Shown one piece after another: positions 3,879-61,270 of a stretch of 64,000 nucleotides of DNA (position 1 is the first letter of the stretch; each line of letters starts with the position of its first letter). The position numbers and the translations under genes were made by a program. Under the pieces are notes generated by a model. That model was not told the DNA's origin. It saw only the letters and a list, made by a program, of their open reading frames with translations, and ran no database searches. Source of the stretch: Candidatus Doudnabacteria bacterium RIFCSPHIGHO2_12_FULL_48_16 (GTDB taxonomy: Bacteria > Patescibacteriota > Doudnabacteria > UBA920 > O2-02-FULL-48-8); NCBI GenBank assembly GCA_001780035.1, contig MFEY01000004.1, forward strand, positions 10,399 through 74,398, read 5' to 3'.

Positions 3879-3928
3879 CTCTCCTAAAATTCCGAATCAA
3901 GTCCAGAATTGCGTATTTTCAAAAGTAA

Positions 3929-4642
3929 ATGCAAATCAAAACCGCACAATTTGAAGGCCCGCTGGATCTGCTGCTGCAGTTGATTCAAGAGCAGCGTATG
4001 GATATTTCGACCGTTGCCTTGGCCGGCGTAACCGAGCAATTCCTCTCTTACGTTAAAAATTTACAGAATAAAAACCCAGTCAACCTGGCGGATTTCCTGA
4101 TCATTGCGGCCAAACTCCTGGTCATTAAATCCAAATCCCTGCTCCCCAACCTGGAATTGGGCATTGAGGACGAAGAGGCGGCCTTTGATCTGACCGCCCA
4201 GCTACTGACATACAAAAAATTCAAAGAAGTCGCCAAATTTCTGCGGCGATTGGATTTTAAACACAAACAGTCTTGGACCCGGGATGTGGATTTTCTCGAT
4301 AAAATCACATTTGTCCCCGATCCCGATGCCGACATTCAAGCATTGGCCAACAGCCTTAGGACCCTGGCGGCCGAACTCAAAGACATCGTGCGGCTGCCGC
4401 AACAGGTCATGAAAGAGATAGTTTCAATATCGGATAAAATCGCCCATATTCAAAAATTGATTTCGGAAAAGATTGAGACCTCCCTCTCCTCTCTCCTGAA
4501 AGAAGCCAGGACCAAAACCGAGGTAATCGTAACTTTCCTGGCGCTGCTCGAACTGACCAAGCAAAAAGTTTTAACAATCGAACAAAGCGAAGCCTTTGCG
4601 GACATTATGATCAAAAAACGCGAACCAAATGAATCGGCTTAA
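3929..4642 (+). CDS. scpA: Segregation and condensation protein A
   Basis: FEGPLDLLLQLI N-terminal signature. Overlaps scpB. Confidence 0.85.
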   Translation: MQIKTAQFEGPLDLLLQLIQEQRMDISTVALAGVTEQFLSYVKNLQNKNPVNLADFLIIAAKLLVIKSKSLLPNLELGIEDEEAAFDLTAQLLTYKKFKEVAKFLRRLDFKHKQSWTRDVDFLDKITFVPDPDADIQALANSLRTLAAELKDIVRLPQQVMKEIVSISDKIAHIQKLISEKIETSLSSLLKEARTKTEVIVTFLALLELTKQKVLTIEQSEAFADIMIKKREPNESA

Positions 4643-8981: not shown

Positions 8982-9003
8982 CCCTCCGGTGATTACGGGA
9001 GGG
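8982..9003. terminator. Hairpin CCCTCCGgtgattaCGGGAGGG flanking the island ORF
   Basis: Near-duplicate of the hairpin at 10452-10472. Confidence 0.5.
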
Positions 9004-9034
9004 TTTTGTTTTTCGGTCTGGATTAACAGAATTA

Positions 9035-10375
9035 TTAAATTCTATTTACAAGCACTTCGGGTAGCTGGAGTATTTTGTCTCCTTGGCTAAACCCGTTTCT
9101 TATTATCGCCGTGATTACACCATTCGGCAGACTTGATTTTTTAGTAGCAGATCTCCCCACGTGATAACGGGAATCAAAGCCAGTCTTCCCTAATGCAATA
9201 GGTATCACTTTTATGCCCGCTGATCCCAATAACGCATCCATCGGGGCTTTGATATCTTTAAACTGACTTAGCCAGGCATTAGCTTGGTCCAGAGGTCTTA
9301 AGCTTTCGGGATCGCCTGTGGCACTCATATACTTATACCCCTCGTTATTAACCAATTCATTATATAACAGGTCGAAGCCACCTAGATTATCCGTGATATA
9401 TCTTGACTGATCAAAATTTTTAAGTTTTTCACGCTCCCCGCTGGTAAGAACACAAAATTTAAACAACACATCTTTCACGCTCTGAGTGATTTTCTCCTGT
9501 TGCTCAACCGAACCTCCCGCACCTATCTCGCCTTTAACGAACTTTCCAACCACGCCTAAATTTTTTGCCGCATTTGCATACCGCTCCACTGGCTGCAACA
9601 TACCCTTAAAAGTATTTCTAATACCCAGGTCTTGTGGGCGTTCTGAGGAGGCTTTATCGATTTTCGAGTTGAACACAACCAGCTTGACAAAAAAATCTGT
9701 CTGACGCTGCTTCACCTGCTCTATATCTTCTTGATTTCTTGAATAGACATCCAGTACTAAAGCCTGATCCAGAGTCAATCTTTCATCTTCAGCAATTCCA
9801 GCTCGCCATGTTTGTTCTTCCGATGTGGCAGTCTGTAGGTCGCTCTGCATTTGACTGAGGGATTGTTCAAGATCAACCACTTCCTTCTTGTAGCCGGGGA
9901 TAAAAACTTCTTCCCATTTGGTAAGTGCCGCTTGAGCCTCGGCAAGTGCTGCTTTAGCACGTTCTACACCGTCTTTTTCGGACACCAATAGAGAACCAGG
10001 TTTTACCCGAGCTTCCGCTTGTCTTAACTCATCATGCGCTTGTTGTAGAAATTCTTTACGCTTTTCTACGCTTTCTAGGAAATCTCTACTCCCTCGACGG
10101 AGTTGCGATTTGGCATATTCCAGAGGAGTGCGGGCTTCAATCATCTTACGCACAATGGCGGTACGGGCTTCAAAAAAATTGATTGATTTGGATAAATTCG
10201 CCTGTCCTTCCGGTCGTTCCAGAAGAGCTGTTATCTTGCCCTTTAGTGCTTCGGGGGCTATCGCCGCTACTCCTGAAAAGTCTTGTTCTACTGTGTTATT
10301 ACCAGCAATTTCTGGCCTACGCATTCCTGTGCTTGGATCAATATCTTCTCCGAATCTCTGTTCTTCATCATCCAT
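9035..10375 (-). CDS. Hypothetical 446-aa coiled-coil-rich protein, cargo of the tRNA-Glu island
   Basis: No recognisable domain. Codon usage is rich in AGA/AGG/GGA/ATA, unlike neighbouring genes. Confidence 0.5.
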   Translation of the reverse strand: MDDEEQRFGEDIDPSTGMRRPEIAGNNTVEQDFSGVAAIAPEALKGKITALLERPEGQANLSKSINFFEARTAIVRKMIEARTPLEYAKSQLRRGSRDFLESVEKRKEFLQQAHDELRQAEARVKPGSLLVSEKDGVERAKAALAEAQAALTKWEEVFIPGYKKEVVDLEQSLSQMQSDLQTATSEEQTWRAGIAEDERLTLDQALVLDVYSRNQEDIEQVKQRQTDFFVKLVVFNSKIDKASSERPQDLGIRNTFKGMLQPVERYANAAKNLGVVGKFVKGEIGAGGSVEQQEKITQSVKDVLFKFCVLTSGEREKLKNFDQSRYITDNLGGFDLLYNELVNNEGYKYMSATGDPESLRPLDQANAWLSQFKDIKAPMDALLGSAGIKVIPIALGKTGFDSRYHVGRSATKKSSLPNGVITAIIRNGFSQGDKILQLPEVLVNRI

Positions 10376-11677: not shown

Positions 11678-11702
11678 CCCCCGCCTCTCGCGAGAGGCGG
11701 GG
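11678..11702. terminator. Bidirectional terminator CCCCGCCTCTCGCGAGAGGCGGGG between convergent genes
   Basis: Perfect hairpin. Confidence 0.6.
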
Positions 11703-28934: not shown

Positions 28935-29139
28935 TGAATTTTTGTTTTGTTTTTGTTTCGACAGTTGTCTTTTGTGACAGAGAGATTCTCTGTAAACTTT
29001 CTACTTATATTATAGCATATATTACTCCGACGCGCAAGACCTTTCAAGAATCTTTCTTAAGTCTTGTAGTCGGAGCCCCGATTTCATTAAAAATATTAAT
29101 AGCAGACGTCGGGGTAGCAAATTTTTCGGCATCCGTCAA

Positions 29140-29159
29140 CCTGCCTGCCGGCAGGCAGG
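29140..29159. repeat. Perfect palindrome CCTGCCTGCCGGCAGGCAGG, copy 1
   Basis: Identical 20-mer at 29935 and 59653. Confidence 0.8.
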
Positions 29160-29228
29160 TTAAAAAAACAGCCGCTGGTGTGCGGCTGCTTGATTTTTGA
29201 TGAAAACTGGAAAGAACTATAAAAAGTT

Positions 29229-29927
29229 TTAGGATTTGATGTCTTTTTCAATCATATCCAAAACCTTGGATGCGTGCTCCTTACCACCGAGGCCAAATGC
29301 GAGTCCGCCGGCAATTGCCAGCATGGCAATAATGCCGGTAAACAACGTTTGGACGAACGGCTGAGCAACTCCGAGCTGGTCTAAGGTCGCAAGAACCGTA
29401 AAGACCATAACTGCCCATTGGGTAATTGAACCCAAAAGATCAGCGGAGTGAAGACCGGCAGCTTTGACGCTGTGGCGGACCAGGCGGGCCAAGAATTGAG
29501 CCACCATGGTGCCGATCAGCATAATACCAGCTGCGGCAATCACCATCGGAATATAAGCCAGCACGCTGTTTAAGAACGCGGAAATTTGGGTGAGGCCGAG
29601 TATGTCTGCCGCAGCCAAGAAGATAGCTACGAGCAGGAACCATTTAACCAGCCAGGCCACCGTGCCGGAGACACTCATTCTGACCCCAGTGCGGGCGGAC
29701 AATTCGTCCAGACCCAGCTTGTCGCCGACTTCATCGAGTTTGAGCGAGTTGAGAACTTGTTTGACAAGTTTGGCCACAAACACGGCCACAACCCAGCCCA
29801 CGATCAGGATGATAACTGCGACCAGGAATTCCGGCAGAAATCCGATCAGGCGACTATAAAGAGCCTGAAGTGACGTGGTCACTGCCGAAGAATAAGCGTT
29901 ACCATAATAAGTTGACATTGAATTCAC
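29229..29927 (-). CDS. Membrane protein with two conserved-TM-helix-type repeats (hypothetical)
   Basis: Multi-TM; internal repeat architecture. Flanked on both sides by the 20-nt palindrome. Confidence 0.5.
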   Translation of the reverse strand: MNSMSTYYGNAYSSAVTTSLQALYSRLIGFLPEFLVAVIILIVGWVVAVFVAKLVKQVLNSLKLDEVGDKLGLDELSARTGVRMSVSGTVAWLVKWFLLVAIFLAAADILGLTQISAFLNSVLAYIPMVIAAAGIMLIGTMVAQFLARLVRHSVKAAGLHSADLLGSITQWAVMVFTVLATLDQLGVAQPFVQTLFTGIIAMLAIAGGLAFGLGGKEHASKVLDMIEKDIKS

Positions 29928-29934
29928 CCCCTTC

Positions 29935-29954
29935 CCTGCCTGCCGGCAGGCAGG
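29935..29954. repeat. Perfect palindrome CCTGCCTGCCGGCAGGCAGG, copy 2; 8 nt upstream of the RBS GGGAAGGGGG of gene 29229-29927
   Basis: Identical to the other two copies. Confidence 0.8.
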
Positions 29955-30505
29955 CGCTTCCCTCAGCGCCTTATGCGACAGGATATCCGATCAAATGATC
30001 GAACTCGACCTAGTTAATTTTCCAATTCACCCCCCACACCAGAAAACAGTGCGATGGATGCCCCAGACTTCACCAGTCTAGAAAAATATCTTAAAACGAA
30101 AACATTTTTCACGACTTGTGGTGTGGGGGTTAACTTGGAATCAAAGTTAATTAGACGCGATCCGAATGGTCCGAATTTTCATCCGAATTACCCGAATAAC
30201 TGCTGTTTAAAACTCTTTTCGGCTTCAGATAAGCTGCTCTGAAATTTATTATTAAGCCAAGTTCCGCATTAGCCGCCCGGAGATATCTTTGCATGCATAC
30301 CTGGAAACAAATGCCGGTTATTTGATAAGACTCTTTGGGAAATATTATTCGTGGCATTCGGATGCATTCGTGGATTAGGATCGCGTTTATATCCAGGAAT
30401 CACGATAAGCAAGACAAAAAGACCAAGGCCCGAAATATCGGTTTTACTTGGCAAATCGACAATTGAGCTTGTCTTTTGTTTCCATCAAATTTTATCGTTA
30501 TATAT

Positions 30506-30592: not shown

Positions 30593-32092
30593 TCAGATGG
30601 CGAACAGGCGTTCGGCGATCCCGAAGTGGATGCCGACGTCGTCCCTCACCGTCAGCCGGTTACCCTGAGGATCTTCGCCGGTGCCGCACGGAATCGTGCG
30701 GACCTTACCATCGGCGAACATGCGGTAGAGCTTGTCGCGCAGCGCGTCAGCGACCTGGCCCCGGTTCTCTCCCGGCTTGACGGTCGCGTTGCCGATCAGA
30801 TACGCGACACGCGTGCCATCCGAGATGAAGGTCCCATCCTTGTAGCCCATCCCCGCCGGCAGCAGGGTCACGTTGTTCTTCTTGAGCCCCTTGAGATCAA
30901 GCATCATCGGCTCGCCCGGCTTGTGGCGCCAAGGGTAGCCTTTGTATTCCCCGCCCGGGCCGGGACCGGTGACGAGCGCGATAGTCATCGCGATCTGGTC
31001 ATCCCTCACATCCGGCTTGACCTCGTCGAGGTGCCCTTCGAACATCGCCATGATCAGCTGGCCGAAGTTGCGCACGAGGCGCAGCATGACCTGGAACTCC
31101 GGTTCGGGCGGCCGAATGTTGATCTCGCAGACGCGAATCGACGCCGGCTTGCCGAACTCGTTGAAGAACACCATGCATCCCGGATACAGGATGCAGGGCC
31201 GCAGGATGCCGCGGCGCCTCATCTCCTCGATCAACGGCCGGAAAACTTGCTTTACCGCCATCTCGAGCAGTTCCTGAGAATGCACGGGGTGCGGCCCCAG
31301 GCTCGCCATGCCACCGGTCACCGGATTGTTCCGGCTGATCTGACCGGCGAACCGGCCCTGGTAGTCCATGGCCGTGGGCAGGATCTGGAAGTTGCCGTGC
31401 ACGTCGACGAGGGCAGTGAAGCTGACCTCGATTCCCGCCATGTAGGACTCCATGAGCAGGGGCCAGGGAAGACCCGGCCCAAGCAACTTCCTGTAGGACT
31501 CGGCGTAATCTGCCATCAGCGTCTCGTAGACTTCGCGGATCTCCCACGGGCTGCCGATGAACCGCGCGCCTTTGCCCGCCGCCTGGAACGGATACTTCGC
31601 ATAGGCGCCGCCGTGCTGTTCCAGGTATCGCAGACACGCTCTGAGAAACGGCTGGTAATGCCTGGCTTCGATCGCAACCCAGTCGGGAGCCACCGGCACC
31701 CGCGCCGAAGCGCAGAGTTGTTTGCATGTTACCTTGTCGCCCTCGATGAATGAAGCCGCCGCGGTCAGGCCGGCGACCCGGTCCCCGAACCCCGCTTCGG
31801 TCATCCGATCCACGAAGCCGTCGATCTGCAGGGCTTCCGGCATCGGCACCACGTAGTCGATTTCGTCGTCTGACAGCGCGCGCAGCACACGCGCGGCGTA
31901 ATCCTGCACCGAGGAACCTCCCGGCACCTCGAGGAAATCAACTGGCCAGCCAGCCAGTTCGGCATAGGGCTTCATTGCGGGCATGCCACGAATCACCACT
32001 CCCTGGAACTCGCCTTTCTCGCCGCTACGGCTGACAGTCAGTGCCGAAAGAAACGTGCGGGCGTCAGAGCCTGCAAATCCGATTCGCTTCAT
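30593..32092 (-). CDS. ATP-grasp ligase of the PurD (phosphoribosylamine--glycine ligase) family, with a long N-terminal extension
   Basis: CEINIRPPEPEFQVMLRL aligns with PurD EFNCRFGDPETQPIMLRM; AAGKGARF aligns with AAGKGVIV. High GC. Confidence 0.6.
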   Translation of the reverse strand: MKRIGFAGSDARTFLSALTVSRSGEKGEFQGVVIRGMPAMKPYAELAGWPVDFLEVPGGSSVQDYAARVLRALSDDEIDYVVPMPEALQIDGFVDRMTEAGFGDRVAGLTAAASFIEGDKVTCKQLCASARVPVAPDWVAIEARHYQPFLRACLRYLEQHGGAYAKYPFQAAGKGARFIGSPWEIREVYETLMADYAESYRKLLGPGLPWPLLMESYMAGIEVSFTALVDVHGNFQILPTAMDYQGRFAGQISRNNPVTGGMASLGPHPVHSQELLEMAVKQVFRPLIEEMRRRGILRPCILYPGCMVFFNEFGKPASIRVCEINIRPPEPEFQVMLRLVRNFGQLIMAMFEGHLDEVKPDVRDDQIAMTIALVTGPGPGGEYKGYPWRHKPGEPMMLDLKGLKKNNVTLLPAGMGYKDGTFISDGTRVAYLIGNATVKPGENRGQVADALRDKLYRMFADGKVRTIPCGTGEDPQGNRLTVRDDVGIHFGIAERLFAI

Positions 32093-32136
32093 GGGTCCAC
32101 TCTCCTTCTAAAAATCCCCCTGCAACTTGATTTCAT

Positions 32137-32173
32137 AGCTTATCACTTTGTCCGCGCTTGGGCAAATAAAAAA
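32137..32173 (-). promoter_or_regulatory. Duplicated promoter-like module TAGCTTATCACTTTGTCCGCGCTTGGGCAAATAAAAA, copy 1, upstream of the purD-like gene
   Basis: Identical 37-mer at 33000-33036. The minus strand gives TTGCCC-N17-TAAGCT. Confidence 0.5.
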
Positions 32174-32228
32174 CGTCAACGGAAGCCTCCCAACTTCCGC
32201 TGACGTATCGTGAGAAAACAGGCCTCGT

Positions 32229-32963
32229 CTACCCCTTCGGGAAGATATGCCGGGCGCAGCGCTTGATCTGGTCGAGTAGCGCCGCTTCGTGGGGGAGAAC
32301 CAGATCGTCGTCGAACTTGATCTCCTGCACGCGGTTCTCCGAGAATGCCCGAAGGGTTCTGATCTGCACCTCGTGCTCGAACGGCAGGAGGCGCGCGGCC
32401 AGAGTCTCGGGATCATCGGTCTTGATCTCGATCGAGGATCGGGCGTAGTCGAGCACCGCGCCCTCGTCGAATTCCACCGTGACCCGCTGAGCCACGGCTT
32501 CGGTCCAGAAGTTGCGCTGCATCTCGCGCACGAATGCCAAGCGCGCGCAATGGGTCTGCCGGCCGTGCAGCTTGCCGAAGTCAGGCCGGCCGGGACGGAT
32601 CGGGCCGGCGTGCTGATTGACTGCCATGCCCGCAAACGCTTCGATGAGATTGGCTGGCGTCCTGGGGATCCAGCCATACTGGCCCCAAAAATCAGCGCCA
32701 CACCGCCGCGTGATCCGCAACAGTTCTTCGCCGTAGGCTTCGGGCGAGGAGAATTCCGACTTCTTGACCACGAAGATGTCCCTGCCCATCTCGAGCCCAT
32801 GCGCCTCGGCCTTCATGATCGCGCCGATCCCGTCCGTGCTCGCGATCACGCACGCCGGTTCAACGTAAGGCAGACGGCTATCCTTAGTTGCCTGCAGGAT
32901 CTGGTTCATGGTCGTGCCGCCGCCGGATACCGCGAGCGCCACCCGTAACTTATTTCCTCTCAC
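32229..32963 (-). CDS. Formyltransferase of the PurN/Fmt family (PurN-like)
   Basis: VALAVSGGGTT N-terminus, NQHAGPI (N-x-H-x-x-LP-type) and downstream H and D. Probable GTG start after AAGGGGGA. Confidence 0.55.
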   Translation of the reverse strand: MRGNKLRVALAVSGGGTTMNQILQATKDSRLPYVEPACVIASTDGIGAIMKAEAHGLEMGRDIFVVKKSEFSSPEAYGEELLRITRRCGADFWGQYGWIPRTPANLIEAFAGMAVNQHAGPIRPGRPDFGKLHGRQTHCARLAFVREMQRNFWTEAVAQRVTVEFDEGAVLDYARSSIEIKTDDPETLAARLLPFEHEVQIRTLRAFSENRVQEIKFDDDLVLPHEAALLDQIKRCARHIFPKG

Positions 32964-32999
32964 ACGTCCCCCTTTGAGAATAATAAAAAGGACTTCCAG

Positions 33000-33036
33000 A
33001 TAGCTTATCACTTTGTCCGCGCTTGGGCAAATAAAA
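33000..33036 (-). promoter_or_regulatory. Duplicated promoter-like module, copy 2, upstream of the purN-like gene
   Basis: See copy 1. Confidence 0.5.
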
Positions 33037-33098: not shown

Positions 33099-33383
33099 TT
33101 AGAGAATCGCGTCTTTGGCAGCTTTGGCTACCCGGAACTTCACGACCGTCTTAGCGGCAATCTTGATCGATTCGCCGGTGGCGGGGTTGCGGCCCATGCG
33201 GGCATCGCGGTGCTTTTTGAGCAGCTTGCCCAAACCCGGGATGGTGAACTCACCATTGTTCTTAGCTTCGCTGTAAGCCAGATTGGCAATAGCTTCCAGC
33301 ATTTCGCCGACCTCTTTGCGGGTCTTGCCGGTCTTTTCGGCAAGCGCGTTGAGGGTTTCGGACTTGGTCATACCTTTGGCCAT
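33099..33383 (-). CDS. hup: DNA-binding protein HU/IHF family
   Basis: Typical HU sequence GEFTIPGLGKL...RNPATGESIKI. Confidence 0.85.
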   Translation of the reverse strand: MAKGMTKSETLNALAEKTGKTRKEVGEMLEAIANLAYSEAKNNGEFTIPGLGKLLKKHRDARMGRNPATGESIKIAAKTVVKFRVAKAAKDAIL

Positions 33384-53471: not shown

Positions 53472-53509
53472 CATAGTACACTTTAAGCGATCGTGTAATC
53501 CGTACTATG
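53472..53509 (+). repeat. 38-bp direct repeat 1 (CATAGTAC-N22-GTACTATG), ending on the ATG of gene 53507
   Basis: Partner at 54073-54110 is about 80% identical; each copy has 8-bp palindromic ends. Confidence 0.65.
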
Positions 53510-54061
53510 AAACCAAAAAACGAATTATCATATAAAATCTTAAAAATACTTAGCGTAGGAGCCCTGATTACGGCAGTCTCGATACTCTCCCCGACCCTAC
53601 CTTATGTCTTGCTGCGTGCATATTTGAGGCGGAAACTCAGGACTAAGTATACTCCTTATCAAATTAATAATAGCTTGGCCTATTTGAAGCGTAAAAAATT
53701 TATTGCTTTTAAGTTCAAAGAACGCAAACTTAAAATTATGATTAGTAAACTTGGTCGGCGGCATTTTGCTAAACAAAGCATGAATGAAATCGAGATCAAA
53801 CCCACAACATGGGATAGACGATGGCGATTGTTGACTTTTGATATTCCGGAAAATCACAAAGGCGCTAGACAAACATTTCGCCGTAAACTAAAGGATCTGG
53901 GATTTTTTCACTTTCAACGTAGCGTCTTTATTTTCCCTTACGCCTGTGAGCTTGAGCTCGGAGAACTGGCGAATATTTTGGATATCAGGGAATATGTGCA
54001 TATACTAATTTGTGACCGGTTCCCAGGCGACCAACCCTTAGTCAAAAAATTCAAACTATAA
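53507..54061 (+). CDS. PaaX-family-like transcriptional regulator (winged helix plus C-terminal domain)
   Basis: WDRRWRLLTFDIPENHKGARQTFRRKLKDLGFFHFQRSVFIFPY resembles the PaaX C-terminal pattern. Confidence 0.4.
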   Translation: MKPKNELSYKILKILSVGALITAVSILSPTLPYVLLRAYLRRKLRTKYTPYQINNSLAYLKRKKFIAFKFKERKLKIMISKLGRRHFAKQSMNEIEIKPTTWDRRWRLLTFDIPENHKGARQTFRRKLKDLGFFHFQRSVFIFPYACELELGELANILDIREYVHILICDRFPGDQPLVKKFKL

Positions 54062-54159: not shown

Positions 54160-54195
54160 CGGGTCTCGCGTGCACTTGCGTGCACGCGAGACCCC
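54160..54195 (-). terminator. Terminator GGGTCTCGCGTGCActtgcgTGCACGCGAGACCC plus T-run, downstream of the asparaginase operon
   Basis: 14-bp perfect stem. Confidence 0.65.
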
Positions 54196-59229: not shown

Positions 59230-59265
59230 TTGCACAAAAAATACCGAATGGCTATAATAAAAGCA

Positions 59266-59470
59266 GAGGTTTTTGAGAGCGAGGAAGTGGCTACCAACCA
59301 TTGAGTTCTCACGCTGAACACTTGCGTTAAAGAGTAAATTAAGAGCGTAGAGCGTGCAGCGCCGAGCGTGTAGTTTCTACACCCTCAACCCTGTCCCCTA
59401 TACCCTAACTTTGGGTGGAACCATCCGTGAGGATCCCAAGCAGAATTATCTGTTTGGGTATTTTTATTTC
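59266..59470 (+). promoter_or_regulatory. Candidate T-box riboswitch leader for thrS
   Basis: -10 TATAAT at 59253. Specifier-like loop CUACCAA (ACC plus A), GCUGA motif, GGGTGGAACC T-box-like sequence, terminator CCCAAGCAG...CTGTTTGGG plus U-run. Confidence 0.45.
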
Positions 59471-59500: not shown

Positions 59501-61270
59501 ATGAAAGAACACAATCAGTTAGACAACCTTCGCCATTCCGCTGCCCATCTTTTGGCTGCGGCTGTCATGAAAATGTGGCCGAACACCAAGCGTGCGATCG
59601 GTCCCTCGATCGAAGATGGTTTTTACTTTGACTTTGAATTCGACCAGGCCGACCTGCCTGCCGGCAGGCAGGTCTCGGAAAAAGATTTTCCGAAGATCGA
59701 AAAGACCATGAAACAGATAGTCAAAACCTGGGACGGTTTTGAACGCCATGAATTATCCGCCGACGATGCCAAAAAAGAATATCCAGGCAATCCTTACAAA
59801 CACGAGCTTGTAGATGAATTCAGTGGCAAGGGCGAAAAGCTCACTTTCTACAAATCCGGCGATTACTGGGATCTCTGCCGCGGCGGCCACGTGGACAATC
59901 CAAAAAAAGAATTACAGCACTTCAAATTGCTCTCCATCGCCGGCGCTTATTGGCGCGGTTCGGAAAAGAATAAAATGCTAACCCGCATCTACGCGACAGC
60001 TTTTCCAACTAAAGAAGAACTGGATCAGCATTTGTTCATGCTGGAAGAAGCCAAAAAAAGAGACCACAAAAAACTCGGCAAAGAATTAGACCTCTTTGTG
60101 TTCTCGGAATTGGTTGGCCCGGGCTTGCCGCTTTATACCCCCAAAGGCACAGAGACGCTTTATGAAATCAAAAACTTTTCCCGCGCGCTCAGAAAAGACA
60201 TGGGCTATCTGGAAGTCCAAACCCCACAAATCAATAAAGGACAATTGTTTAAAATTTCCGGGCATTACGACAAATTCCACGATGGTATGTTCCGAGTTGT
60301 TTCTCACTATTCGGAAGAAGAATATTTCATGAAACCCATGAATTGTCCGCAGCATACGCAAATCTATGCTTCTCGTCCGCGTAGCTATAAAGATCTTCCC
60401 ATAAAACTGGCTGACTTGGCTATGTTATACCGTGACGAAAAACCCGGACAGCTTTCGGGTCTAACCAGGTTACGCTCTTTTTCTCAGGACGATGCCCATT
60501 GTTTTTGCCGCGAAGACCAAATCGAACAAGAGTTTGATCTCCTGCTGCAAGCTATAGAAAAAGCCATGAAAACTTATGGTCTGAACTACTACATCAGATT
60601 CTCCTTGCGCGACGAAAATAACAAAGACGCTTATTTGGGCAGTGATGAGGTCTGGCAGAAATCCCAGAAACTTCTGGAAGAGCTACTGCAAAAAAGAAAA
60701 CTTGATTATAAAAAAGCCGAAGGCGAGGCTGCCTTCTACGGTCCCAAGATGGACTTAATCGTCAAAGACTCACTGGGTCGCGAATGGCAATTATCAACCA
60801 TTCAGCTGGATTTTAATATGCCGGAGCGGTTTGGACTGGAATATACTGACGTACACGGCCAAAAAGCCATTCCAATAATGATTCACAGCGCCTTGGTAGG
60901 TTCCCCTGAAAGATTCTTTGGCGTCGCTATCGAACACTTCGCTGGCGCCTTCCCGGTCTGGCTCGCCCCGGTCCAGGTCAAAATATTGCCCATCACGGAC
61001 AAGCAGAATGAGTATGCTCATGAGCTTGCTACTGAGCTTGCTACTGAGCAGATCCGAGTCGAACTCGATGACCGCTCCGAGTCCGTCGGCAAAAAAATCC
61101 GCGGGGCGGAAATGGAAAAAGTGCCTTACATGCTGATTGTGGGTGAAAAAGAAGTGGAAGCCAAATCCGTGGCGGTCCGAGCACGCAATCAGAAAGACTT
61201 GGGCGTCATGAAACTCAATCAATTTATCGACAAAATCCGTGAGGAAATCAAAACCCGAAGGCTATCTTAA
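59501..61270 (+). CDS. thrS: Threonine--tRNA ligase
   Basis: HSAAHLLAAA, class II core, anticodon-binding domain. Contains the in-frame palindrome (DLPAGRQV). Confidence 0.9.
   Translation: MKEHNQLDNLRHSAAHLLAAAVMKMWPNTKRAIGPSIEDGFYFDFEFDQADLPAGRQVSEKDFPKIEKTMKQIVKTWDGFERHELSADDAKKEYPGNPYKHELVDEFSGKGEKLTFYKSGDYWDLCRGGHVDNPKKELQHFKLLSIAGAYWRGSEKNKMLTRIYATAFPTKEELDQHLFMLEEAKKRDHKKLGKELDLFVFSELVGPGLPLYTPKGTETLYEIKNFSRALRKDMGYLEVQTPQINKGQLFKISGHYDKFHDGMFRVVSHYSEEEYFMKPMNCPQHTQIYASRPRSYKDLPIKLADLAMLYRDEKPGQLSGLTRLRSFSQDDAHCFCREDQIEQEFDLLLQAIEKAMKTYGLNYYIRFSLRDENNKDAYLGSDEVWQKSQKLLEELLQKRKLDYKKAEGEAAFYGPKMDLIVKDSLGREWQLSTIQLDFNMPERFGLEYTDVHGQKAIPIMIHSALVGSPERFFGVAIEHFAGAFPVWLAPVQVKILPITDKQNEYAHELATELATEQIRVELDDRSESVGKKIRGAEMEKVPYMLIVGEKEVEAKSVAVRARNQKDLGVMKLNQFIDKIREEIKTRRLS
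59653..59672. repeat. Perfect palindrome CCTGCCTGCCGGCAGGCAGG, copy 3, inside thrS
   Basis: Extends to the 24-nt GACCTGCCTGCCGGCAGGCAGGTC, encoding DLPAGRQV. Confidence 0.8.

Follow-up and report, generated by a model that had tools for sequence, protein, structure and literature searches.

Can a piece of DNA only 20 nucleotides (nt) long, with nothing between its two ends, move from site to site, and how did such a piece come to lie in frame within an essential gene? The question is raised by a 64,000-nt stretch of Candidatus Doudnabacteria bacterium RIFCSPHIGHO2_12_FULL_48_16 (contig MFEY01000004.1), the whole of which is called the window here. It contains three exact copies of the perfect 20-nt palindrome CCTGCCTGCCGGCAGGCAGG, hereafter PAL, one of them inside thrS, the gene of threonine-tRNA ligase (ThrS). 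The copies had been listed at 29140, 29935 and 59653 in an earlier inspection of the letters (the sequence-only reading), and an exact search finds them there:

29140 to 29159, unstranded: PAL copy 1, between a terminator T-run and a -35-like TTGACG; absent in the relatives' loci L213-L216, present in L217.
29935 to 29954, unstranded: PAL copy 2, in the 5' leader of a minus-strand membrane-protein gene; absent from the leaders of L213, L215 and L216, present in L217.
59653 to 59672, unstranded: PAL copy 3, inside thrS, read as D-LPAGRQ-V; absent at the orthologous position in L121 and L122.

The expected number of PAL copies in the window is 0.01, and three were reached in 0 of 100 shuffles. 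The motif is not a common low-complexity sequence. No further copy with up to three mismatches is found in the 64 kb, and searches of the window for the 12-nt core and for the arms with a spacer gave the same three sites and nothing more. With its flanks, copy 1 forms a 24-nt palindrome (AACCTG...CAGGTT, 29138-29161). Copy 3 also extends to 24 nt (GACCTG...CAGGTC, 59651-59674) and encodes DLPAGRQV, as had been proposed, and copy 2 is 20 nt with no extension. The predicted stability of the hairpin is -13.9 kcal/mol for 20 nt and -18.5 kcal/mol for 24 nt. Copies 1 and 2 were recovered at 100% identity in L217, a Logan contig present in five samples, and copy 3 was recovered in assemblies of other samples at NCBI (L218) and ENA (L219-L221). 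This genome has three exact copies in about 72 kb, one-third of them intragenic, and the density in the window (three in 64 kb) is comparatively high among carriers.

Is copy 3 an insertion? The gene and the extra base that accompanies PAL are:

59501 to 61270, plus strand: thrS, threonine-tRNA ligase, 589 amino acids (aa), with tRNA_SAD, tRNA-synt_2b and HGTP_anticodon domains; host of copy 3; 100% identical to P0001.
59647 to 59648, plus strand: one extra G, CAGGCCGA against GAGCCGA in relatives, 5 nt upstream of PAL; putatively placed here from the DNA alignment.

The two closest ThrS orthologs with DNA (L121 and L122) have 89% aa identity and the same dnaE-thrS-miaA-gatB neighborhood. At the site they read GA(T/A) GA(A/G) CC(A/G) A followed directly by TC TCG, where the window has GAC CAG GCC GA, then PAL, then TC TCG. 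The net difference in the DNA alignment is +21 nt, or 7 aa. The segment is longer than in relatives, as the sequence-only reading had it in comparison with E. coli ThrS, and of its estimate of 7-8 residues, the figure of 8 is to be dropped. Two accounts of the alignment seem about equally economical. In one, a precise 20-nt insert would have entered between GA and TC, together with one extra G five bases upstream, converting an ancestral D-Q-P-I-S to D-Q-A-D-LPAGRQ-V-S. In the other, a 21-nt insert would be accompanied by a Pro-to-Ala substitution.

The protein comparisons cover a wider set of enzymes. The consensus of the relatives at the site is F-[DE]-x-P-[IV]-S-E-K, and the spacing from the GFYFDF strand to the IEKxM helix is 12-15 residues in 115 of 118 ThrS homologs. 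Furthermore, the seven residues are missing from the solved structures of S. aureus (1NYQ) and E. coli (1QF6) ThrS. The in-frame insertion that had been suggested is supported by these comparisons, since the relatives lack the extra residues and do not encode them by a different, nonpalindromic sequence. In the editing (SAD) domain, the inserted residues, about 50-57, fall in a coil that joins strand 40-46 to helix 60-74. An AlphaFold model of ThrS has a mean pLDDT of 93.6, with 87 at residues 51-60, and residues 47-59 are coil; in this model, copy 3 is predicted to lengthen the strand-to-helix coil of the editing domain by 7 residues. A metagenome scan for thrS alleles with identical flanks gave no match to either an empty or a filled allele.

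Copies 1 and 2 are located on the two sides of a single gene:

29229 to 29927, minus strand: membrane-protein gene, PF05552 (conserved transmembrane helix/MscS-like first domain), bracketed by copies 1 and 2; likely start ATG at 29918.
29169 to 29188, unstranded: terminator hairpin, which predates PAL and is separate from it; adjoins copy 1.

The bracketing and the neighboring terminator were described correctly in the sequence-only reading, but copy 2 is 1 nt, not 8 nt, upstream of the Shine-Dalgarno (SD) sequence. Because the gene is on the minus strand, copy 2 stands 5' of this SD, AAGGGGGTG (29925-29933). Copy 1 is found 2 nt past the terminator T-run of the gene, directly before the -35-like TTGACG of the downstream CAP-domain gene. 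The order HU - membrane gene - CAP - YceG recurs at four orthologous loci (83-86% aa identity), and PAL is present in none of the four. Downstream in the relatives, the terminator T-run leads almost directly into a TTTACA...TATAAT promoter, whereas in the window AA and PAL lie between the T-run and TTGACG. Upstream, the relatives have the SD GGAAGGGGGTGAAT in common and PAL is absent; the spacer is too diverged for an exact reconstruction of the empty site. Since this synteny is kept in relatives without PAL, the membrane gene itself is not a mobile cassette, and we rejected the idea that the two copies bracket one. The explanation of copies 1 and 2 needs no function; the two intergenic hairpins could incidentally affect mRNA stability or translation. 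Comparison with relatives shows all three sites to be empty there, and by these alignments this Doudnabacteria lineage has gained PAL three times, each at a different place.

Two minus-strand genes at 30593-33011 separate HU (33099-33383) from the membrane gene in the window, one encoding an ATP-grasp protein of the GARS_A type (499 aa) and the other a formyltransferase-like protein (260 aa). The GC content of these genes is 56-57%, compared with about 47% elsewhere, and in the syntenic relatives L213, L215 and L216, HU is followed straight by the membrane gene. The region looks like an acquired island of roughly 3 kb. We also considered that copy 2 might be the edge of this GC-rich two-gene island (30.6-33.0 kb), and rejected it because homology to the relatives' HU-to-membrane-gene spacer runs about 300 nt past PAL. 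The minus-strand leader at 29955-30250 contains a conserved hairpin, CTAGACTGGTnAAGTCTAG, and other blocks common to L213 and L215. As the hairpin has no Rfam match, this may be an undescribed leader RNA.

How widespread is PAL outside this lineage? Cellular genomes were scanned for the exact 20-mer in eight-kb blocks, with one genome per species, and viruses were scanned in IMG/VR for exact patterns. Exact PAL was found in at least 120 genome blocks from more than ten phyla. The matches listed include many lineages of Patescibacteria, Bacteroidota (seven cultured isolates), Omnitrophota (a single-cell genome), Planctomycetota and Gammaproteobacteria, as well as Bdellovibrionales, Nitrospirota (Thermodesulfovibrionales), Chloroflexi, Verrucomicrobia, Elusimicrobia and Ignavibacteria. 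The majority of the carrier genomes were assembled from metagenomes; cultured isolates, the single-cell genome and long-read assemblies also carry PAL. In viruses, exact PAL occurs in 35 IMG/VR stretches, and one terminase-encoding phage contig has six copies in 29.5 kb. Exact PAL is, tentatively, sparse in most genomes. What is unusual is that one sequence is exact across many phyla and phages, yet its copy number per genome appears to be low. In the searchable full-text literature, the exact 20-mer is found in no paper, and its half-arms occur together only in unrelated primer lists or papers on repeat expansion. Searches by keyword yielded only general literature on REP elements, miniature inverted-repeat transposable elements and small dispersed repeats.

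The specificity of the sequence was examined with three control palindromes matched to PAL in composition. In the viral scan, PAL with its arms swapped gave 0 stretches, as did the arm-permuted palindromes CCGTCCGTCCGGACGGACGG (0) and CTGCCCTGCCGGCAGGGCAG (0). PAL with its arms 1-8 nt apart gave 3 stretches and is about 10 times rarer than PAL itself. Since the controls are absent and the spacer variants are rare, the unit is one specific, fixed, zero-spacer 20-mer and not a generic GC-rich hairpin. Degenerate PAL copies, with 1-2 mismatches, are found near exact copies in several loci, as expected of a decaying repeat family. The presence of the identical 20-mer in more than ten phyla and in phages means that PAL behaves like an extremely small mobile DNA element. 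Judged by the surroundings of its copies, PAL has entered many unrelated sites across phyla and in tailed phages.

Is thrS exceptional in carrying PAL in frame? PAL is also in frame in FtsK (L013), in GatB (L104), where the 24-nt GACCTG...CAGGTC is the same as in thrS, in an RfbB-like dehydratase (L021), where it is nested, in ribosomal protein S6 (L047) and in GT39-like membrane proteins (L043, L071). The frame in every credible gene is x-LPAGRQ-x. PAL is stop-free in all frames; two other frames encode Cys (PACRQA and CLPAGR), and LPAGRQ, which is Cys-free, is a flexible loop sequence.

The anatomy of the insertion sites was obtained from 167 PAL copies, giving 334 half-site flanks. PAL is mostly intergenic, with 28% of copies in open frames of at least 150 codons, compared with 83% of random positions. 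The flanking base next to the arm is A in 42% and T in 9% of the pooled half-sites, and the commonest pair is A...T. There is no target-site duplication: flanking direct repeats are at the random expectation, except for four copies in heptamer arrays that have 7-nt repeats, and in a heptamer tandem array any insertion is automatically repeat-flanked. Heptamer contexts are seen at L045, L080, L082, L101, L123, L125, L131, L141 and L146. The tags of REP (repetitive extragenic palindrome) elements are absent, with GTAG at 6 and CGTC at 8 of the 334 half-site flanks, which is about chance. A T-run follows 14% of the copies and 17% of random positions, so PAL has no terminator signature. In Rfam, the window gave no match above the gathering score other than tRNAs, and nothing credible was found at PAL sites at E<=1. 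The loops or centers of host hairpins are enriched about 3.5-fold in PAL (11.6% against 3.3%), and at L018 and L042 PAL is nested in its own center.

In the phage tRNA-Met of L147, PAL is located in the variable loop, and removing it restores a canonical 72-nt tRNA, showing that a precise 20-nt block was inserted. This gene, with that of the related L124, is the only one that is cleanly intact after PAL removal. The two related phage contigs differ by a 13-nt deletion immediately after PAL. Five copies are in D-loop DNA of tRNAs, several of which are fragments. PAL also stands directly after the D-loop of tRNA-like 5' halves (...GGTAGA, then PAL) in L015, L037, L085, L099 and L154 (and L030); several of these halves are truncated or degenerate downstream, and sometimes they are beside an intact tRNA gene. 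Clean tRNA insertions were considered for L015, L037, L099, L106 and L154 and were rejected, as these are tRNA fragments or pseudogenes.

What, then, is PAL? We consider it probable that PAL is a miniature palindromic insertion element that is non-autonomous, in which two 10-nt arms abut to form a fixed unit of 20 nt and the flanks show a weak preference for A...T. The mobility suggested in the sequence-only reading is supported indirectly by the empty sites in relatives, the unrelated contexts across phyla and phages, the null controls, the nesting and the in-frame copies in other genes. In the mechanism that we propose, a sequence-specific enzyme acting in trans would move or copy PAL, which would explain the identity of the 20-mer across phyla, including its zero-spacer center. 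Candidates, at the level of a guess, would be a hairpin-recognizing HUH/RAYT-like nuclease or a phage-borne enzyme. Entry may be into exposed, single-stranded or extruded DNA, such as hairpin loops, the loops of tRNA genes, the center of PAL itself and heptamer arrays. Selection then filters the survivors: most copies are intergenic, and those in genes persist only if the net gain in length is divisible by three, the frame is LPAGRQ and the site is a surface loop. In thrS, the coil has gained 7 residues, and one extra base would have restored the frame.

Several observations weigh against this proposal. No mobilizing enzyme was found in the scanned part of the window, in the PAL-rich phage contigs or near PAL elsewhere. 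An all-against-all BLAST of 3,194 open reading frames (ORFs) from 155 PAL loci gave no gene family common to different taxa; the only shared genes were structural genes of phages related to one another. Similarly, Pfam searches of 10 ORFs from the window and 20 from PAL-rich phage contigs found terminase, adaptor and one HNH domain, with no transposase and no RAYT. Relatives at 83-89% aa identity are the nearest in which the sites are empty, and no presence/absence polymorphism within a species was found. The intergenic alignments to relatives at copies 1 and 2 are loose. About 15 contigs longer than 400 kb each give one block among the matches listed, which is odd for a proliferating repeat. 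The excess of copies in hairpin loops and heptamer arrays could be due to survivorship and not targeting; the preference may equally be the targeting of unpaired DNA or only the survival of insertions there. Finally, a simple 20-nt insertion into thrS with later repair cannot have been the event. As thrS is essential, an insertion of 20 nt on its own would be lethal before any compensation, and therefore restoration of the frame is needed in the same or a closely linked step.

Could PAL instead be a functional cis-element kept by selection? It might be the binding, cleavage or methylation site of a dimeric protein, such as a restriction-modification enzyme or orphan methylase acting at GCCGGC/CCGG, or it might be an operator, with the flanking copies regulating the membrane gene; the sequence-only reading had suggested a restriction-modification or regulator target for the GCCGGC core. 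A perfect palindrome without a spacer, whose spacer variants are rare, is what a dimer would be expected to bind. The sequence is conserved across phyla, and two copies do bracket one gene, beside its SD and terminator. However, the orthologs of that gene in relatives lack both copies, even though the SD, the terminator and the synteny are kept. Copies within coding regions, tRNA genes, phages, heptamer arrays and one another are a poor fit to an operator, no regulator or methylase gene is linked to PAL in the loci and window ORFs scanned, and we know of no host protein with a 20-bp site common to more than 10 phyla. We regard such a protein site as unlikely. An RNA hairpin that has been recruited repeatedly, as a terminator, mRNA stabilizer or processing site, with the thrS copy as a by-product, is slightly less likely still. 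The hairpin is indeed stable, copy 1 abuts a terminator and copy 2 is in a 5' leader. This explanation does not account for the identity of PAL in unrelated genomes or for its copies in tRNA genes and coding regions, and it meets with a loop that is fixed instead of variable, the lack of any Rfam match and a T-run frequency no higher than at random positions.

The lack of a target-site duplication, and the copies at the centers of host palindromes and in repeat arrays, would also be accounted for if palindromes arose locally and independently by template switching, snap-back synthesis or hairpin repair. Such a process would be expected to duplicate whatever sequence is nearby, whereas the same 20-mer is found at more than 160 unrelated sites and the three control palindromes at none; a local origin is already strongly disfavored, and we consider it very improbable. 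As most carriers are metagenome-assembled genomes, an assembly or library artifact must also be weighed, and we find it hardly credible. Different samples, assembled at NCBI, ENA and Logan, have the same copies, and PAL is carried by the cultured isolates, the single-cell genome and the long-read assemblies. Furthermore, the flanks are contiguous, and the insert in this essential gene is in frame and has a compensating base.

Taking PAL as a miniature insertion element, to which known repeats does it compare? By analogy, it seems most like the small dispersed repeats (SDRs) of cyanobacteria. These are reportedly about 21-27 nt long, some of them palindromic, recognized as insertions by comparison of orthologous sites, nested, associated with heptamers and protein-free, and they are said to occur within one cyanobacterial order at high copy number. 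By that description, PAL is alike in its length of 20 nt, in its recognition as an insertion by orthologous-site comparison, in its nesting (L018, L042), in its heptamer contexts and in having no protein. It differs in being one identical 20-mer over more than ten phyla and phages, apparently sparse, and in frame in essential genes. The SDRs are those of the Nostocales treated by Elhai et al. (2008, Genome Res 18:1484), here as cited in PMC3116915. The coding copies of PAL are like the Rickettsia palindromic elements (RPEs), selfish palindromic repeats found in frame in coding sequences, including housekeeping genes, and tolerated as extra surface segments. With a length of about 100-150 bp, RPEs contribute about 30-50 aa, and they are known only from Rickettsia. 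PAL, by contrast, is 20 nt long, adds 7 aa, crosses phyla and has a Doudnabacteria host. For RPEs, the source is Ogata et al. (2000), as cited in PMC3184786.

The other families are less close in structure. REP/REPIN sequences are imperfect palindromes with a GTAG or CGTC tag, species-specific, in hundreds of copies and often in inverted doublets flanking a RAYT gene (PMC3116915, PMC3733652). PAL resembles them as a short, GC-rich, hairpin-forming and non-autonomous repeat, mostly intergenic and often near terminators, and differs in having no tag, in being a perfect palindrome with zero spacer and in occurring also inside genes; no RAYT was seen in the 10 window and 20 phage-contig ORFs. Miniature inverted-repeat transposable elements are roughly 50-500 bp, whereas PAL is 20 nt, has no target-site duplication and has no internal sequence from a parent insertion sequence. 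Intrinsic terminators differ from PAL in that PAL has no T-run enrichment, and copy 1 is beside a separate terminator. The GC clusters of organelles, also short GC-rich palindromes, have spread in genomes richer in AT and have reached genes there, as lineage-specific families that are usually longer and more variable. By this description, PAL is likewise a short GC-rich palindrome that reaches genes, but it is a fixed 20-mer of bacteria and phages, while the clusters are organellar and lineage-specific. Such GC clusters and palindromic repeats are known from yeast and green-algal organelles (PMC2670323, PMC7235400).

PAL is not the only short GC-rich element in these genomes. The ThrS loop that corresponds to window positions 59640-59680 holds other short GC-rich inserts in two further thrS genes of candidate phyla radiation (CPR) bacteria. 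In the thrS of P0043 (L222), the same loop has the tandem hairpins TCCGCC-CAA-GGCGGA and TCCGCC-TCT-GGCGGA, 30 nt in all, and in that of P0114 (L223) it has the 21-nt CCTTCGACAAGCTCAGGGCAA, a 21-mer found in 16 viral stretches. The ThrS loop is thus a tolerant spot, struck by several short GC-rich elements. A second widespread family of mini-hairpins, TCCGCC-(3-4 nt)-GGCGGA, co-occurs with PAL in L011, L015, L016, L032, L040, L108, L110 and others; its member TCCGCCAGCTGGCGGA is present in 7 of 120 PAL loci among the matches listed and in 55 viral stretches. A third mini-hairpin, CCGATAGCTATCGG, is present in 3 PAL loci among the matches listed. In L156, a 21-nt variant of PAL, CAGGCCATGCCTACCGGCAGG, is repeated perfectly eleven times in tandem at 3911-4142, up to the end of the viral contig.

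It is conceivable, although we hold it with some doubt, that no smaller unit of mobile DNA than PAL has so far been observed to cross phyla. It would be a 20-nt 'two-ends-only' unit, mobilized in trans by a widespread, possibly phage-carried, enzyme specific for hairpins or palindromes. It would also be one of a guild of GC-rich mini-hairpins, together with TCCGCC-loop-GGCGGA and CCTTCGACAAGCTCAGGGCAA, that repeatedly remodel the surface loops of essential proteins and the tRNA genes of small-genome (CPR) bacteria.

The window and its close relatives have some further features. A perfect 24-nt palindrome at 11679-11702, CCCCGCCTCTCGCGAGAGGCGGGG, and a near-perfect 34-nt palindrome at 54161-54194 are unrelated to PAL in sequence. 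We rejected both as candidates, since each separates two convergent genes and resembles an ordinary bidirectional terminator, which it probably is. At 53507-54061, there is a gene for a 184-aa protein with a PaaX_M/Cas2-like domain. Near thrS, GCA_001777705.1 (L218), a further assembly of this organism with 99.9% identical flanks, has a gene for a 237-aa protein between dnaE and thrS at its positions 9002-9783, which the window lacks (59244-59283). This protein has no Pfam match, and the gene is a strain-level presence/absence difference unrelated to PAL. The gatB product is called as 471 aa in L219 and L220 and as 491 aa in L218 and L221, with ThrS identical in all four; either the start sites differ or there is a small polymorphism close to the 5' end.

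What does PAL mean for the genomes that carry it? If it really moves, the lower size limit of mobile DNA would be 20 nt, with nothing between the ends, and a single unit of this size would be able to spread over bacterial phyla and phages. The conservation of the exact 20-mer predicts a specific enzyme. PAL inserts can confuse gene calling, ortholog alignment and the detection of frameshifts in metagenome-assembled genomes. PAL is also a route for the disruption or extension of tRNA genes, and it provides a concrete route to new surface-loop residues in essential, conserved proteins such as ThrS, FtsK, GatB and S6.

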